Position numbers and translations under genes: made by a program. A stretch of DNA of 4,189 bases, from IMG/VR virus record IMGVR_UViG_2663762627_000001, positions 1 through 4,189 of that record; one strand, 5' to 3'. A model generated the notes under the pieces. It worked only from the letters and a program-made list of their open reading frames with translations, had not been told where the DNA came from and did not search any database. The DNA is from a virus. Its lineage: Duplodnaviria > Heunggongvirae > Uroviricota > Caudoviricetes. This document shows positions 247-4,189 of the stretch, one piece after another (the stretch's first letter is position 1; each line of letters starts with the position of its first letter).

Positions 247-433
247 AGCCATATGTTTTGCGCATGACAGCCAGGAAGACCAGAAGCTGGTGCTGTGTTA
301 ATCCGGCCAGCATTACAGCTTCCAGCAACTCATTTGCAATGCGCGTATAACCATCATCGAGATCTGCCACGCGCGGCTCCTTTTGTGCCATATCCGGCAC
401 TGGAAAATTGAATATCTCAGCAGTGTTTGCCAT
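242..433 (-). pseudogene. Replication initiator O-like gene, N-terminal fragment only, interrupted by IS1
   Basis: The minus-strand product MANTAEIFNFPVPDMAQKEPRVADLDDGYTRIANELLEAVMLAGLTQHQLLVFLAVMRKTYGW aligns with the N-terminus of lambda O (…VADLDDGYARLSNMLLEA…LLAILRKTYGW, from memory). The frame stops at a TAA (242-244) lying inside the IS1 terminal repeat, directly after the W codon (245-247). Start assigned to the ATG at 433-431, which sits 4 nt after a GGGAGG ribosome-binding site; the ORF track's longer form starts at 523. Confidence 0.8.
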
Positions 434-519
434 AATTCCTCCCGCAATGAGTGCGTTACGATTTGCACCTGAAAGTCGGTTCTGTTCCCGCAGACCGGCT
501 TTCGCCATTTCTGAACCTG

Positions 520-1059
520 TCATATTGCCCCCAGCATGGTGGTAACCATCGCCATCAATGGACCAGCCAGATCAGGATCCACACGAAACATCGACACAAT
601 GCCTTCACTCATCTCCTTCAGTTTCTGGTGGCGTGGTGCGTTGAGAATGACCGCCTGTTTTGCCTCGCTGAGCTCCTTTTCCATTTCAACCAGTCGAGCC
701 ATGAAGCTATCCTGCTCAACCAGGTGGCCGCGATATTTCAGCGGTAGTACTGCCAGAATTGCTGGAGTCAGTTCACGCACGTTATTTCGGTATTTTTCAG
801 AATCGAATTTGTTATCGAGAAAGCGGAACAGCTTCTGGCGTGCACGACTGACATCATCAGGAAAATCGATAGTGCCGCCGCCCTGTGCTCGATACTCATT
901 CACAATGAGTGCGGCAACGACATCCTGATTATCTACAGCCGACCAGGCGCGGACGGCATCACGGATTTTTTCGTGGCCTGGCACCTGTTTTATTTGAGAA
1001 CGATTTATCACCGCAGTCGGGATAAATCCGCTAGTCTGTTGGTATGTAATTGGTTGCAT
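520..1059 (-). CDS. CII-position regulatory protein, probably YdaT-family (179 aa from the ATG at 1059; the ORF track's 190-aa form starts at 1092)
   Basis: Long minus-strand ORF directly downstream of cro and upstream of the O-like gene. The ATG at 1059-1057 has an AAGGA ribosome-binding site 9 nt upstream; the ATG at 1092 has none. Motifs EYRAQGGG and LTPAILAVLP are reminiscent of YdaT-family proteins (family assignment from memory, not verified). Its stop overlaps the upstream in-frame ATG of the O frame in an ATGA arrangement (520-523). Confidence 0.6.
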   Translation of the reverse strand: MQPITYQQTSGFIPTAVINRSQIKQVPGHEKIRDAVRAWSAVDNQDVVAALIVNEYRAQGGGTIDFPDDVSRARQKLFRFLDNKFDSEKYRNNVRELTPAILAVLPLKYRGHLVEQDSFMARLVEMEKELSEAKQAVILNAPRHQKLKEMSEGIVSMFRVDPDLAGPLMAMVTTMLGAI

Positions 1060-1082
1060 AATTGATTCCTTTAGTCTGAATT

Positions 1083-1128
1083 GACTGTTCATCAGTCTGT
1101 TAAGTTGATTGCTTATTGTTAAAGAACG
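1083..1128 (-). promoter_or_regulatory. Candidate nutR-like site: boxA-like element plus a small hairpin, between cro and the CII-position gene
   Basis: Minus strand 1128->1115 reads CGTTCTTTAACAAT, one mismatch from the rrn/lambdoid boxA core (T/C)GCTCTTTAACAA as I recall it. 17 nt further downstream, GACTG-ATGAA-CAGTC (1097->1083) forms a 5-bp stem with a 5-nt loop, the same geometry as boxB. Position matches lambda nutR. Confidence 0.35.
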
Positions 1129-1140
1129 TGAAAAGGAAAT

Positions 1141-1371
1141 TTAAGCTGCATTCTTTTCGGTATGTGGAAACAACTTCGGAAGATCCGGGCGAATCTGGTA
1201 TGCCTTAACTACCCCGCCAGTAGCCGTAACAATGCTGCCGACATGTTCAGGGGATACCTTTGCTTTGTTGTGTAGCCACTTATAGACGGCCTGCTGTGAA
1301 ACTTCGCAGGCATCGCCCAGTTTCTTTTGTGAACCGACGATATTGATCGCGGTTTTGATTGCTGGGTTCAT
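1141..1371 (-). CDS. cro: Cro-like HTH repressor (76 aa)
   Basis: Minus-strand ORF divergent from the repressor gene, with a GGAGG ribosome-binding site 5 nt upstream of the ATG (1371-1369). The product MNPAIKTAINIVGSQKKLGDACEVSQQAVYKWLHNKAKV…VKAYQIRPDLPKLFPHTEK has the same pattern as lambda Cro (…[20 protein letters not shown]…VYAEEVKPFPSNKK). Confidence 0.85.
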   Translation of the reverse strand: MNPAIKTAINIVGSQKKLGDACEVSQQAVYKWLHNKAKVSPEHVGSIVTATGGVVKAYQIRPDLPKLFPHTEKNAA

Positions 1372-1398
1372 AACAACCTCCGTGGTTAACTTGAATTA

Positions 1399-1470
1399 AG
1401 ATTAAAACCATGGTTGTTTTTAGTCAACAACCATTTTCGTTTGATGAAATAAAACCTTGGTTGTACATTT
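1399..1470. promoter_or_regulatory. OR-like divergent control region with three operator candidates and PR-like/PRM-like promoters
   Basis: Two perfect 10-bp palindromes, AACCATGGTT (1406-1415) and AACCTTGGTT (1453-1462), flank a half-site-only copy AACCATTTTC (1429-1438); centre spacing is 23 and 24 bp. Minus-strand TTGACT (1427-1422) followed by an AT-rich -10 candidate TAATCT (1404-1399) would drive cro. Plus-strand TTGATG (1441-1446), a 17-bp spacer and TACATT (1464-1469) would place a transcription start at about the cI ATG, giving a leaderless message as at lambda PRM. Confidence 0.5.
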
Positions 1471-1475
1471 GGTCT

Positions 1476-2165
1476 ATGAAAACAACACTCTCAGAAAGAC
1501 TTAAAGAAGCCAGATTAGCGCGAGGCCTTACACAAAAGGCGCTTGGGGATATGGTCGGGGTTAGCCAGGCTGCCATTCAGAAAATCGAAACAGGGAAAGC
1601 TAACCAAACAACTAAAATCGTGGAGATCGCAAACGCTTTAGGTGTGCGCGCAGAATGGTTATCTTCTGGCGTTGGAAATATGTCAGACAGTACCGTGCAA
1701 CCAATACAATCAACTGTCAGCCATTCAAAATACTTCAAGATTGACGTTCTTGATATAGAAGTCAGTGCCGGACCGGGTGTCATCAACCGTGAGTTTGTGG
1801 AAGTTCTACGCTCGGTTGAGTACTCGTTTGACGATGCTCGTCACATGTTCGATGGCAGGAAGGCGGAAAATATCCGCATCATTAACGTGCGCGGTGACAG
1901 CATGTCAGGGACGATCGAACCAGGTGACCTGCTGTTCGTTGATATCACTGTTAAATCTTTCGACGGTGATGGCATCTATGCGTTTCTGTACGACGACACT
2001 GCCCATGTAAAACGTCTTCAAATGATGAAGGATAAGCTGCTGGTTATCTCTGATAACAAGAGCTACTCGCCGTGGGACCCGATCGAGAAAGACGAGATGA
2101 ACCGGGTGTTCATATTCGGTAAGGTCATTGGAAGCATGCCGCAGACGTACAGGAAGCATGGTTAA
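1476..2165 (+). CDS. cI: CI-like prophage repressor (N-terminal HTH, C-terminal S24/LexA-type autoprotease domain), 229 aa
   Basis: The HTH segment LSERLKEARLARGLTQKALGDMVGVSQAAIQKIETGK begins right after the ATG at 1476. The C-terminal half carries a candidate Ala-Gly cleavage site (VSAGPG), the catalytic serine motif GDSM and the lysine motif HVKRL. The ORF track's upstream start at 1410 would run through the operators, so 1476 is preferred. Stop TAA at 2163-2165. Confidence 0.9.
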   Translation: MKTTLSERLKEARLARGLTQKALGDMVGVSQAAIQKIETGKANQTTKIVEIANALGVRAEWLSSGVGNMSDSTVQPIQSTVSHSKYFKIDVLDIEVSAGPGVINREFVEVLRSVEYSFDDARHMFDGRKAENIRIINVRGDSMSGTIEPGDLLFVDITVKSFDGDGIYAFLYDDTAHVKRLQMMKDKLLVISDNKSYSPWDPIEKDEMNRVFIFGKVIGSMPQTYRKHG

Positions 2166-2340
2166 TTTATCTACGACTTAAGGGAGCGAAGGTTAAGGTT
2201 TATACCACTCGGATTAGATATTGCACTAAATTCTCTATAAGAACGCCAAATCTGTTTGCATATTTCAGTAAATATTCTCGTTGTTAGCTGAAATTTGTTG
2301 CTACTGTCAGCAAAATGTCCCCCTATCTCGTAGCGGTTTT

Positions 2341-2386
2341 TATTTCGAATCATTATGTTAAGATGTTTCTGATTATAATGAATGGA
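2341..2386 (+). promoter_or_regulatory. Candidate promoter for the lipoprotein gene
   Basis: Perfect TATAAT at 2374-2379 with TG at 2370-2371, 16 bp upstream of the ATG at 2395, in an AT-rich intergenic tract. No good -35 hexamer; the leader would be very short. Confidence 0.3.
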
Positions 2387-2394
2387 AACATAAA

Positions 2395-2775
2395 ATGAGA
2401 AAAATCCTAATCGCTGCCATGATGGCATCTCTATTGGCTGGGTGTGCTTCTTCAGGCAACCAGCAACTCAAAAATGAAACTGAAATTAGTGTCCAGTCTA
2501 AACTTCAGGAAGGTAAAACAACCAAGAATGAGGTTAAATCTTACTTTGGTTCTCCTGATGCTGTTTCATATACTGACAGTGGAAACGAGATCTGGAAGTA
2601 CGCCTTTGCAAAAGTAAAAGTTAATGGCACCACTTTTATTCCATTCTATGGATTATTCCATAATGGAACGAACGGTACGAAAAAAGAACTTACTATTCTT
2701 TTTAACGATGACACGATTAAGAAATACACAATGTCAGAAACCCAAATAAACTCGAAATCAGGTTGGGCTGACTGA
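2395..2775 (+). CDS. Outer-membrane lipoprotein of unknown function (126 aa), in the rexAB-equivalent slot; fold possibly BamE/SmpA-OmlA-like
   Basis: Signal peptide MRKILIAAMMASLLAG followed by lipobox LAGC; the residue after the Cys is Ala, consistent with outer-membrane sorting. Mature region has a pattern resembling BamE: GKTTKNEV…FGSPD…EIWKY…ELTILFNDD versus BamE GMTQQQV…LGTP…NTWFY…TLTLTFNSS. Codon usage is clearly more AT-rich than flanking genes, and the gene has its own terminator. Confidence 0.85.
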   Translation: MRKILIAAMMASLLAGCASSGNQQLKNETEISVQSKLQEGKTTKNEVKSYFGSPDAVSYTDSGNEIWKYAFAKVKVNGTTFIPFYGLFHNGTNGTKKELTILFNDDTIKKYTMSETQINSKSGWAD

Positions 2776-2783
2776 TAATCATA

Positions 2784-2810
2784 CCCGGCAACCGCGCCGG
2801 GTTTTCTTTT
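2784..2810 (+). terminator. Rho-independent terminator after the lipoprotein gene
   Basis: Stem CCCGGC (2784-2789) / GCCGGG (2796-2801) with loop AACCGC, followed by TTTTCTTTT (2802-2810). Confidence 0.8.
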
Positions 2811-2904
2811 CCTCCCCCTCATAACTCATACCGTCCAAAAAACCACCACACCTCACTTCAGTTATCGCTATGCGATGCAAGTCACAAAATAAATCCATCC
2901 TAAA

Positions 2905-2985
2905 TACAACCAGTTATATTTAAAACAACCGACAAAACAACTTTTGTTGTTGACGATAAAACAACTATAGTTTTAAATAAATTCA
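2905..2985 (+). promoter_or_regulatory. pL/OL-like region: candidate promoter and repeated operator-like motifs
   Basis: TTGACG (2950-2955), a 17-bp spacer, then TTAAAT (2973-2978). The ACAACC-type motif seen in OR recurs here: TACAACCA (2905-2912), AAAACAACC (2922-2930), the inverted repeat AACAAC-TTTT-GTTGTT (2936-2951) overlapping the -35, and AAAACAAC (2958-2965). Confidence 0.4.
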
Positions 2986-3034
2986 TCGCAACGACACAAC
3001 GATACGGTAACCACCTGTTTCACCGTTGCGATGA
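2983..3034. repeat. Perfect 11-bp inverted repeat with a 30-bp spacer in the pL leader
   Basis: TCATCGCAACG (2983-2993) and its exact reverse complement CGTTGCGATGA (3024-3034), immediately downstream of the candidate pL -10. Confidence 0.7.
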
Positions 3035-3255
3035 CCGCTTAGATCCGCAGTTTGAATTTCAGCAGGCTTCGGGGAGTGCGAGGGGTGAAACGGACGCGTG
3101 AACGTCGGTGTGACCAGCTGAAATCAACACAACACTTTATACCTCAGTCGCTTCAACGAGGCGGCTTAGTTATGACAACCGGCGGCCATCCACCGCCTGA
3201 ATACGCGCAGAAGTCTCTATATGTTCAGCAGCCCAGCTTACGGGCAGGAGTTTTT

Positions 3256-3462
3256 ATGGTTCATCAACATTACGGAACGCAGACCGTTAATCGCGGCGCG
3301 GTCATGCCAGGAATGCTGGTCAAACACAAAGATGGTACCTGGACTGCATCAGCTAATTTACGCGGGCGGCTTTATCTGCATCGCGGCATCGAGCGCACTT
3401 ATACCCGTGATTTGCTCGTAGAAGTTTTTCTCGACGGACGCGGTAACGGCCTGAATCACTAA
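3256..3462 (+). CDS. Hypothetical small protein (68 aa) in the N/kil position upstream of gam; may be the C-terminal part of a longer ORF
   Basis: ATG at 3256 has an AGGAG ribosome-binding site 5 nt upstream; stop TAA at 3460-3462. The same open frame extends upstream to a TTG at 3052, with a GTG at 3085 (GGGGAG 8 nt upstream) and an ATG at 3172 (GAGG upstream). Product MVHQHYGTQTVNRGAVMPGMLVKHKDGTWTASANLRGRLYLHRGIERTYTRDLLVEVFLDGRGNGLNH has no family I can recognise. Confidence 0.45.
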   Translation: MVHQHYGTQTVNRGAVMPGMLVKHKDGTWTASANLRGRLYLHRGIERTYTRDLLVEVFLDGRGNGLNH

Positions 3463-3538
3463 CCCCCCTTTCCTGTTTTCCTAATCAGCCTGGCATTTCG
3501 CGGGCGATATTTTCACAGCCATTTTCAGGAGTTCAGCC

Positions 3539-3835
3539 ATGAACGCTTATTACATTCAGGATCGTCTTGAGGCTCAGAGCTGGGCGCGTCACTACCAGCA
3601 GATCGCCCGTGAAGAGAAAGAGGCAGAACTGGCAGACGACATGGAAAAAGGCCTGCCCCAGCATTTGTTTGAATCGCTCTGCATCGATCATTTACAACGC
3701 TGCGGGGCCAGCAAAAAAGCCATTACCCGTGCATTTGATGACGATGTTGAGTTTCAGGAGCGCATGGCAGAACACATCCGGTACATGGTTGAAACCATTG
3801 CTCACCATCAGGTTGATATTGATTCAGAGGTATAA
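3539..3835 (+). CDS. gam: Gam, host RecBCD nuclease inhibitor (98-aa GamS form)
   Basis: Product [98 protein letters not shown] is near-identical to lambda Gam as recalled. AGGAG ribosome-binding site 8 nt upstream; stop TAA at 3833-3835. Confidence 0.95.
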
Positions 3836-3840
3836 AACGG

Positions 3841-4189
3841 ATGAGTACAGCACTCGCAACGCTGGCTGGGAAGCTGGCTGAACGTGTCGGCATGGATTCT
3901 GTCGACCCACAGGAACTGATCACCACTCTTCGCCAGACGGCATTTAAAGGTGATGCCAGCGATGCGCAGTTCATCGCATTGTTGATCGTCGCCAACCAGT
4001 ACGGCCTTAATCCGTGGACGAAAGAAATTTACGCCTTCCCTGACAAGCAGAACGGCATCGTTCCGGTGGTGGGCGTTGATGGCTGGTCCCGCATCATCAA
4101 TGAAAACCAGCAGTTTGATGGCATGGACTTTGAGCAGGACAATGAATCCTGCACATGCCGGATTTACCGCAAGGACCGTAATCATCCGA
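3841..4189 (+). CDS. bet: Bet (Red-beta) single-strand annealing recombinase, N-terminal 116 codons (3'-partial at window end)
   Basis: Product MSTALATLAGKLAERVGMDSVDPQELITTLRQTAFKGDASDAQFIALLIVANQYGLNPWTKEIYAFPDKQNGIVPVVGVDGWSRIINENQQFDGMDFEQDNESCTCRIYRKDRNHP matches lambda Bet as recalled; GAGG 10 nt upstream of the ATG. Confidence 0.95.
   Translation, partial: MSTALATLAGKLAERVGMDSVDPQELITTLRQTAFKGDASDAQFIALLIVANQYGLNPWTKEIYAFPDKQNGIVPVVGVDGWSRIINENQQFDGMDFEQDNESCTCRIYRKDRNHP

Follow-up and report, generated by a model that had tools for sequence, protein, structure and literature searches.

The 4189-nt stretch analysed here (IMG/VR record IMGVR_UViG_2663762627_000001; hereafter the window) holds part of a lambda-like prophage, namely its immunity and early region, in which a single gene for a 126-residue lipoprotein (2395-2775, + strand) lies between the cI-type repressor gene and the leftward promoter pL. 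Lambda carries rexAB at this position. An initial annotation, made from the sequence, had placed the gene in this slot and proposed it as a candidate for superinfection exclusion or defence. The placement is borne out by the repressor upstream (1476-2165; PHROG 4, transcriptional repressor, E=9e-73) and by operator-like AAAACAAC repeats at the left operator (OL) downstream. The features of the slot and its boundaries are the following.

1476-2165, + strand: cI-type repressor gene with HTH_3 and Peptidase_S24 domains (Pfam, S24 E=1.2e-18, HTH_3 E=2.5e-13)
2166-2345, + strand: spacer between cI and the cassette, of the E. coli type only and without a conserved open reading frame (ORF)
2356-2364, + strand: extended -10 element TGTTAAGAT (hexamer 2359-2364), conserved, ending 30 nt before the ATG
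2359-2372, + strand: 14-mer TAAGA-N4-TC(C/T)GA, conserved, overlapping the extended -10
2371-2379, + strand: GATTATAAT with TATAAT at 2374-2379, from the alignment of upstream regions
2384-2387, + strand: Shine-Dalgarno-like GGAA, 7 nt before the ATG; GGAA(A) is kept in related loci
2395-2775, + strand: lipoprotein ORF, 126 residues
2395-2442, + strand: signal peptide, residues 1-16
2443-2445, + strand: codon of Cys17, predicted to be lipidated
2635-2667, + strand: codons of FIPFYGLFHNG (F81-G91), the most conserved motif of the family (FIPFYGLFxNG)
2783-2810, + strand: rho-independent terminator, stem-loop 2783-2802 followed by a T-run
2922-2985, + strand: OL operators (AAAACAAC at 2922, 2934 and 2958) and putative pL, the downstream boundary of the slot

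The AAAACAAC repeats number 6 against 0.32 expected, and they cluster at the right operator (OR; 1402-1486, between cI and cro) and at OL (2922-2976); the lipoprotein ORF therefore sits between cI and OL/pL. OR and OL are further related by an inverted pair (I2) of 19 nt with 89% complementarity, and a direct repeat (D4) is also found at OL. The putative pL was recognised by eye (TTGACG at 2950-2955, 18 nt, TAAATA at 2974-2979), and the promoter scan did not report these hexamers.

The product of the ORF begins MRKILIAAMMASLLAGC and carries the lipobox L-A-G-C predicted at the outset, with Cys17 invariant in all 125 diverse homologues aligned. Residue +2 is Ala in the window protein, and Asp at +2 occurs in 0 of the 117 homologues with a recognised lipobox; outer-membrane sorting is therefore predicted by the E. 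coli Lol rule. Judged by its sequence, the window protein is a lipoprotein whose sorting signal is compatible with Lol transport to the outer membrane. The gene is also AT-rich, as had been claimed, with a GC content of 0.33-0.40 over 2200-2800 as compared to 0.47-0.52 in the flanking genes. Comparison of coding sequences with that of the window alone was saturated (dS about 2.3), and was replaced by 254 closer ortholog pairs (0.15<dS<1.5) drawn from 72 distinct orthologous coding sequences. The median ratio of nonsynonymous to synonymous substitution rates (dN/dS) of these pairs is 0.044, which indicates a real gene under strong purifying selection.

Database searches agree with the initial view that the protein is not a characterised one. 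It belongs to phrog_3135 (E=7e-48), annotated as of unknown function; NCBIfam gave no meaningful assignment, PADLOC v2 gave 0 defence families at E<=1, and the literature search found no published work on this family. The family is thus uncharacterised, being unknown in phage databases and misnamed in genome annotation. A word-indexed search returned 228 close relatives from Escherichia, Citrobacter, Enterobacter, Cronobacter, Serratia and other genera, with at least 71% identity among the matches listed. A second subclade at 44-50% identity includes proteins of Klebsiella phage RAH1, Pantoea, Serratia and Tatumella. Among the matches listed from an exhaustive profile search, nearly all are lipoproteins of about 125-135 residues that share the pattern GC-x(2-4)-GN...TTK-x-EV...FG-x-P...W-x-Y...F-I-P...L-x-I-L-F.

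The mature part had been described as resembling BamE/SmpA-OmlA, and this description is upheld by both the fold and the family profile. The window protein itself scores 21.8 bits against the BamE domain PF04355 (E=1.6e-4), below the gathering cut-off of 23.2, and PF04355 is matched by 101 of 125 diverse members at E<=0.01, with a best E of 2.4e-11. On sequence evidence, the family therefore truly belongs to the BamE/SmpA-OmlA superfamily, as one of its divergent branches. AlphaFold models were built from 21 sequences (mean predicted local distance difference test score, pLDDT, 70) and from 125 sequences (pLDDT 83, predicted template-modelling score 0.71), and both display a confident alpha-alpha-beta-beta-beta core on a short tether. 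BamE is the nearest solved structure, and the fold is superposable on it. When the family alignment was used as a profile against PDB sequences, BamE was absent even at E<=10 and nothing else was significant, so that the link to the BamE of the PDB is suggested by the comparison of modelled folds only.

The two proteins share an aligned core (G-x-P, W-x-Y and L-T-x-x-F) and a detectable sequence homology. They differ in that the identity to E. coli BamE is only 24% by BLASTP, the Pfam score is below threshold, the context here is that of a mobile element, and residues of about 73-85 (VKVNGTTFIPFY) are inserted in the window protein. This insertion amounts to 12-13 residues in the beta1-beta2 hairpin, and it carries the conserved aromatic motif. 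Residues F81, I82, P83, Y85, G86, L87, F88 and G91 are invariant in the close-family alignment, and P83 is conserved at 90% or more in the broad 125-member alignment. A conserved motif in a segment of low model confidence is typical of a partner-binding loop, and the inserted hairpin is proposed, from the models, to be a partner-binding element. Mimicry of a beta-signal substrate was set aside, as GxxFxxF of the hairpin misfits the beta-signal consensus.

Transcription signals around the gene were compared across related loci. The initial annotation had assigned the gene a -10 of its own, which was TATAAT; the hexamer does exist at 2374-2379, but no acceptable -35 accompanies it, the scan found no + strand promoter there, and its position reads GATTGCAAT in related loci of the upstream alignment. 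The conserved candidate for a promoter element, as predicted from the sequence, is instead TGTTAAGAT at 2356-2364. TG(T/A)TA(A/G)GAT, matched as TG.TA[AG]GAT, is present in 25 of 50 loci outside the tail slot described below, 30-31 nt before the ATG. It is found in 16 of 20 tail-slot loci at a spacing of about 22-35 nt, the start codons there being uncertain, and the flanks are unrelated. The extended -10 is thus seen in 41 of 70 related loci overall.

A perfect palindrome of 10 bp, GATTGCAATC, follows just 3' of the conserved -10 in most of the immunity-slot copies; together with the 14-mer it was seen in loci L003, L007, L011, L049, L057 and others. The pair looks like an operator-like site for some regulator, judging from its sequence. 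The E. coli type has GATTATAATG in place of the palindrome, and it is this mutation, specific to the type, that gives rise to TATAAT at 2374-2379. An RcsAB box, to whose consensus the 14-mer fits at 10 of 14 positions, is speculative and was not adopted, because a site 24-25 nt before the ATG leaves no space for a downstream -10.

The terminator claimed as clean and intrinsic was recovered as a stem of 7 bp, 6 of them G-C (2783-2802; -13.5 to -14 kcal/mol), followed by TTTTCTTTT. Of 70 related loci, 65 have a comparable terminator 3' of the gene (49 of the 50 outside the tail slot, 16 of the 20 within it), and some loci also have a terminator-like hairpin upstream of the ORF. The 180-nt spacer at 2166-2345 is without a strong terminator, its best local hairpins being of -4.8 to -8.5 kcal/mol and no + strand terminator being reported in it; read-through from cI and a promoter of the cassette are therefore both plausible. 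By blastn, this spacer is matched only in E. coli-type loci of at least 97% identity. In a third class of loci the promoter element is missing and the ORF starts 48 nt after cI, with which it is presumably co-transcribed. Promoter-like element, ORF and terminator appear, from their joint recurrence in sequence, to form one cassette that is carried as a unit between slots.

Two minor features of this upstream region may be recorded. An imperfect inverted repeat of 27 nt (window 2337-2394, arms 2337-2363 and 2368-2394, 74% complementary) spans the promoter-like element and the ribosome-binding site, and its sequence is such that it could sequester the latter in a cI read-through transcript. An ORF of 85 residues on the - strand (2171-2428) was treated as spurious, since it is limited to the spacer of the E. 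coli type and absent from the PGAP annotation.

The distribution of the gene is that of mobile cargo. It occurs in 69 of 5426 complete E. coli genomes (1.3%) and in 7 of 50,697 phage records, and every context examined is a mobile element, whether prophage, phage, plasmid or integrative island. The carriers include lambdoid prophages of E. coli, Citrobacter and Enterobacter, a Serratia prophage, a phage-like 47.9-kb E. coli 'plasmid', and phages PhiR26_1, S107/S135/S137, RAH1, PDP110P1 and Alteromonas P24. Plasmid records carrying a family member number 128 in all, including those of Burkholderia and Acetobacter, and a very abundant distant cluster (P0146) is found on an integrase/AlpA island. 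The survey of this slot in related prophages, proposed in the initial annotation, was run on 94 further loci, all of them from Enterobacterales (80 taken from IMG/VR, the other 14 being GTDB species representatives). Recurrence of the cI-pL slot was found, and a second home in the tail slot emerged besides; the family also proved broader than lambdoid phages, as the exhaustive profile search, with clusters drawn at 50% identity, retrieved 2657 of them at E<=1e-3 and 743 at E<=1e-10.

In 31 of 70 non-redundant loci the closest upstream gene of 100 residues or more encodes an S24 protein, and in 24 of 70 a Phage_CI_repr protein, two sets that may overlap; the family is placed after the repressor in prophages of E. 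coli, Citrobacter, Enterobacter and Salmonella. A tape-measure-sized ORF lies within 2 kb downstream in 20 of 88 loci, which define the tail slot. The upstream neighbours there are DUF6246 or antirepressor-type morons (Rha/KilA-N/Arc), with assorted PHROGs of unknown function as other companions. DUF6246 is provisionally taken, from its position, to be a tail chaperone. The two slots are thus the cI-pL interval of the immunity region and the chaperone-to-tape-measure interval, which is the position of HK97 gp15. In a Serratia prophage, a YebO-family gene (E=1e-9) lies in the tail slot directly 3' of the lipoprotein gene.

The first slot had been cited as a known position for defence genes, and the survey supports this. 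In Salmonella phage S107 (locus L003, 2989-3911), orf59 and orf58, located between cI and the lipoprotein gene and immediately upstream of the latter, constitute a frameshifted BstA, the fragments matching PADLOC models at E=9e-100 and 9e-17, both being annotated as hypothetical; S135 and S137 are expected, from their sequences, to share this layout. Other tenants of the cI-pL slot are ParA-like AAA_31, P63C-domain and DUF3037 proteins and several unknowns. The cI-N interval is a reported hotspot of mosaic diversity, with BstA, an abortive-infection protein, highly expressed from it in lysogeny (Owen et al., PMC8585504).

A moron is defined by its own promoter and terminator, a deviant GC content and insertion between conserved genes (PMC3594210). 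The gene matches this definition, the promoter part of the match being a prediction from sequence: a flanking terminator accompanies the predicted promoter, GC is deviant, presence is patchy and two genome positions are used. The product of HK97 gene 15, the first moron described, is an inner-membrane protein related to YebO, and it blocks the entry of DNA (PMC3594210). HK97 gp15 is likewise a cassette with its own promoter, terminator and deviant GC, and its tail slot is shared by the present family; it differs in being an unrelated inner-membrane protein without a lipobox, and the window copy lies in the immunity region.

These observations are best accommodated by a role in superinfection exclusion, to which a probability of roughly 0.4 is assigned. 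By analogy with the systems considered here, the protein would be a lysogen-expressed binder of the periplasmic face of an outer-membrane protein. The lysogen would transcribe the gene from its own extended -10 and, in the window, probably also by read-through from cI. The protein would have a lipid anchor in the outer membrane's inner leaflet and face the periplasm, where its inserted hairpin may dock on the periplasmic face of a beta-barrel serving as a phage receptor or ejection conduit. Such docking would resemble that of BamE on BamA, of the TpgA domain on AtaA and of T5 Llp on FhuA; it may block the adsorption or DNA ejection of superinfecting phages, and the protein would not be a subunit of the machinery for beta-barrel assembly (BAM). 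This reading is favoured because both slots house lysogen-expressed genes for exclusion or defence; PhiR26_1, a carrier of the gene, has the defence gene PD-lambda-1 as well. The gene is hence put forward, by analogy, as a good candidate for protection of the lysogen against other phages. The lipoprotein cassette of the window is intact while an IS1 element has destroyed the replication gene of the same prophage, a state weakly consistent with a benefit to the host.

Several known systems bear on this reading. RexAB of lambda and BstA of BTP1 are lysogen-expressed products of the same slot 3' of cI; unlike the lipoprotein, which is predicted to be exported to the envelope, they act by intracellular abortive infection and have no sequence or structural relation to it. 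Cor (phi80/N15/mEp167) and Llp (T5) are, like the present protein, small phage-encoded outer-membrane lipoproteins, which inactivate FhuA, and a functional analogy with them is proposed; no homology to it was found, and they appear to differ in fold and do differ in genomic position. Cor is expressed from prophages and Llp is made during lytic T5 infection, Llp acting on FhuA from the periplasmic side. In TpgA from Acinetobacter sp. Tol5 the N-terminal domain, which has the BamE fold, binds the periplasmic face of the AtaA barrel (PDB 9VNJ; PMC12523085). TpgA is not a lipoprotein moron; it has a C-terminal OmpA_C peptidoglycan-binding domain and forms an operon with its partner, a partner gene being linked in TpgA only and not in the window. 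In mEpimmI phages, lipoproteins of the structural cluster exclude phages that use OmpA or LamB (PMC11893012). The protein search of the phage collection returned no mEp-named record, the presence of mEp phages in that collection being unchecked, which suggests that these lipoproteins serve as a functional analogy only and are not close relatives of the family.

A number of findings weigh against superinfection exclusion. The function is read by analogy from context and fold only. Homology to a proven exclusion lipoprotein was not found, Cor having been tested and PADLOC being empty. The comparison to Cor and Llp suggested in the initial annotation brought out no homology: with Cor (PHROG 1119) only residues 1-29, the signal peptide, align (E=0.034), and no Llp-like structure is among the fold matches listed. 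For cor and llp, linkage to the receptor-binding genes of the phage that carries them is usual. The lipoprotein gene lies mostly in the immunity region, away from receptor-binding genes, and its phages differ in their early-left (recombination) and replication modules; since the carriers are mosaic phages with varied modules, no one fixed receptor suggests itself as the target. The promoter-like element is missing from half of the non-tail loci and is a consensus match only. The hairpin that would bind the partner is the least confident segment in both models (pLDDT 44-59 and 53-71). Members on conjugative plasmids and integrative islands would be fitted equally well by a general envelope function.

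The kinship with BamE raises the alternative that the protein is a BAM-directed paralogue, acting at or near the BamE site on BamA POTRA5/BamD and altering the behaviour of BAM in the lysogen, in the assembly of prophage outer-membrane proteins, in the tuning of host ones or through a change of the BamA surface. BamE contacts BamA and BamD via its N-terminal region and the beta1 and beta2 strands, as stated in passages of PMC12523085 citing Kumar and Konovalova 2023. The insertion of 12-13 residues falls in the very hairpin for which those passages report the BamA/BamD contact, TpgA demonstrates the reuse of the fold for non-BAM partners (PMC12523085), and the host already has bamE. Moreover, across the surveyed loci the lipoprotein gene has no consistent linkage to a gene for an outer-membrane protein, and the alternative is thus considered unlikely.

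An envelope-fitness or virulence moron of the Bor or Lom kind, improving survival in serum, bile or osmotic stress, or adhesion, would be compatible with the conjugative plasmids and islands mentioned above. It is held improbable here, as exclusion and defence genes are the cargo for which both slots are best known, no Bor/Iss or TraT family is among the Pfam matches at E<=1, and nothing points to a particular stress.

The fold comparison also brought up BLIP/BLIP-like proteins and the type VI secretion system (T6SS) immunity protein BtiO, and with them the idea of a periplasmic inhibitor or immunity protein whose hairpin blocks an incoming periplasm-acting enzyme, such as a T6SS effector, a colicin/bacteriocin domain or a virion-borne peptidoglycan hydrolase. 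The likeness is at the fold level only, at 11-19% identity, and the domain organisation and biology of these proteins differ; BLIP inhibits beta-lactamases, and no connection of the lipoprotein gene to beta-lactamases was seen. Immunity genes usually adjoin their toxin, and in every locus examined T6SS, colicin and effector genes are unlinked to the lipoprotein gene, which makes an inhibitor quite unlikely.

A variant that combines the BAM site with exclusion would be a phage-encoded mimic of BamE, in or beside the BamE site on BamA/BamD, reshaping the surface loops or lateral gate of BamA from the periplasm. It is compatible with BamE being the nearest structure, with the insertion lying in the contact hairpin and with reports that BamE contacts POTRA5 and the periplasmic turns of BamA and modulates BamA conformation. 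Cells so modified might become refractory to BamA-dependent phages (such as the short-tailed Stx phages) or to contact-dependent toxins; the mimicry and this outcome are both regarded as a long shot. If true, the BAM machine would have been hijacked for superinfection exclusion.

That the gene is a true housekeeping BamE (or BamD), as RefSeq has it, is suggested by the name that PGAP gives it in the listed RefSeq genomes, 'outer membrane protein assembly factor BamE', and by the sub-threshold PF04355 match, and is effectively refuted by its low identity to E. coli BamE with a large insertion, by the PDB profile search, by its sparse and, in the loci examined, always prophage-borne occurrence in E. 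coli, and by the inconsistency of the names themselves. Among the RefSeq records listed, the sequence is called 'BamE' in 24 genomes and 'BamD' in one (NZ_CP074001.1), misnomers for a prophage cargo gene. The housekeeping identity that the initial annotation had itself named as the contrary case thus finds no place in the mobile contexts seen here.

As a kind, prophage morons for envelope lipoproteins are known, and a BamE-fold lipoprotein with a conserved inserted hairpin is structurally new. Should superinfection exclusion be the function, the family would represent a new structural class of exclusion protein, its diverged relatives numbering in the hundreds across the prophages, plasmids and genomic islands of Proteobacteria. 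It would then help to show how phages exploit outer-membrane proteins from their periplasmic face, and would offer a natural ligand for the bound barrel, possibly BamA, an antibiotic target. Whatever the function, correction of the 'BamE'/'BamD' names is of use, since they could mislead pangenome and essentiality analyses. The presence of one moron cassette in both classical lysogen-expressed slots provides a clean model of moron mobility.

The remainder of the window consists of the following genes.

13-231: 3' end of IS1 (C-terminus of InsB; DDE_Tnp_IS1 E=3e-38)
242-523, - strand: replication-O gene, first 93 codons only, adjoining the IS1 end
520-1092, - strand: YdaT/cII-like gene
1141-1371, - strand: cro-like gene
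3256-3462, + strand: kil
3539-3835, + strand: gam
3841 onward, + strand: start of recT/bet

Window 247-4189 is 99.95% identical to a prophage beside ybhC in E. coli strain 210205630 and shares 97.4% identity with phage PhiR26_1. The homology with the intact prophage begins at window 247, and IS1 has left the O gene with 93 codons. Because the IS1 end truncates this gene, the prophage copy is probably replication-defective, while its immunity region and lipoprotein cassette are intact. No gene for an N-like antiterminator is present in the interval from the putative pL to kil (window 2985-3255). A put-like RNA in this 270-nt leader was considered and dropped, as Rfam gave no match in the whole window at E<=1 and the folding of the leader is no better than that of shuffled sequences (z=0.03).

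Between the lipoprotein terminator and pL, many Citrobacter and Enterobacter prophages carry a convergent ORF of 69-84 residues (L045 6431-6685 and L007 8413-8637, both on the - strand), which is DUF2767 in some loci and without a family in others. The window lacks this small ORF, and an ORF of 39 residues is left at 2779-2898. The scan reported a - strand promoter-like site at 2964-2991 (TTGCGA, 16 nt, TATAGT) facing back to the lipoprotein terminator; it may be the remnant promoter of the convergent ORF of the related phages.

Distant members of the family were met on records labelled as plasmids. A 43-kb circular 'plasmid' of Herbaspirillum seropedicae (L020, 5382-6390) has the repressor-then-lipoprotein order, its member being 39% identical to P0146. 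With its cII, cro-like, repressor, recT and exonuclease genes, the record looks like a circularised temperate phage genome and not a plasmid. Burkholderia plasmid records with a member number 111. Among them, the F-type conjugative-like plasmid p86s2p of Burkholderia glumae (L017, 6959-7360) carries a member with 39% identity to P0146, located 3' of traG, with a zeta-toxin gene on one side and a DsbD-N/YadA-like adhesin cluster on the other. The trimeric autotransporter near this member may be relevant by analogy, given the precedent of TpgA and its autotransporter.

Regarding the literature on PhiR26, the search found only unrelated Pseudomonas phages. The genome of PhiR26_1 (L117) has a 99% identical copy of the lipoprotein gene together with an unusual wealth of envelope and defence morons: PD-lambda-1, an OmpD-like porin, Bor, Lom and an omptin, and an unannotated gene of 1.5 kb is also present near its right end.

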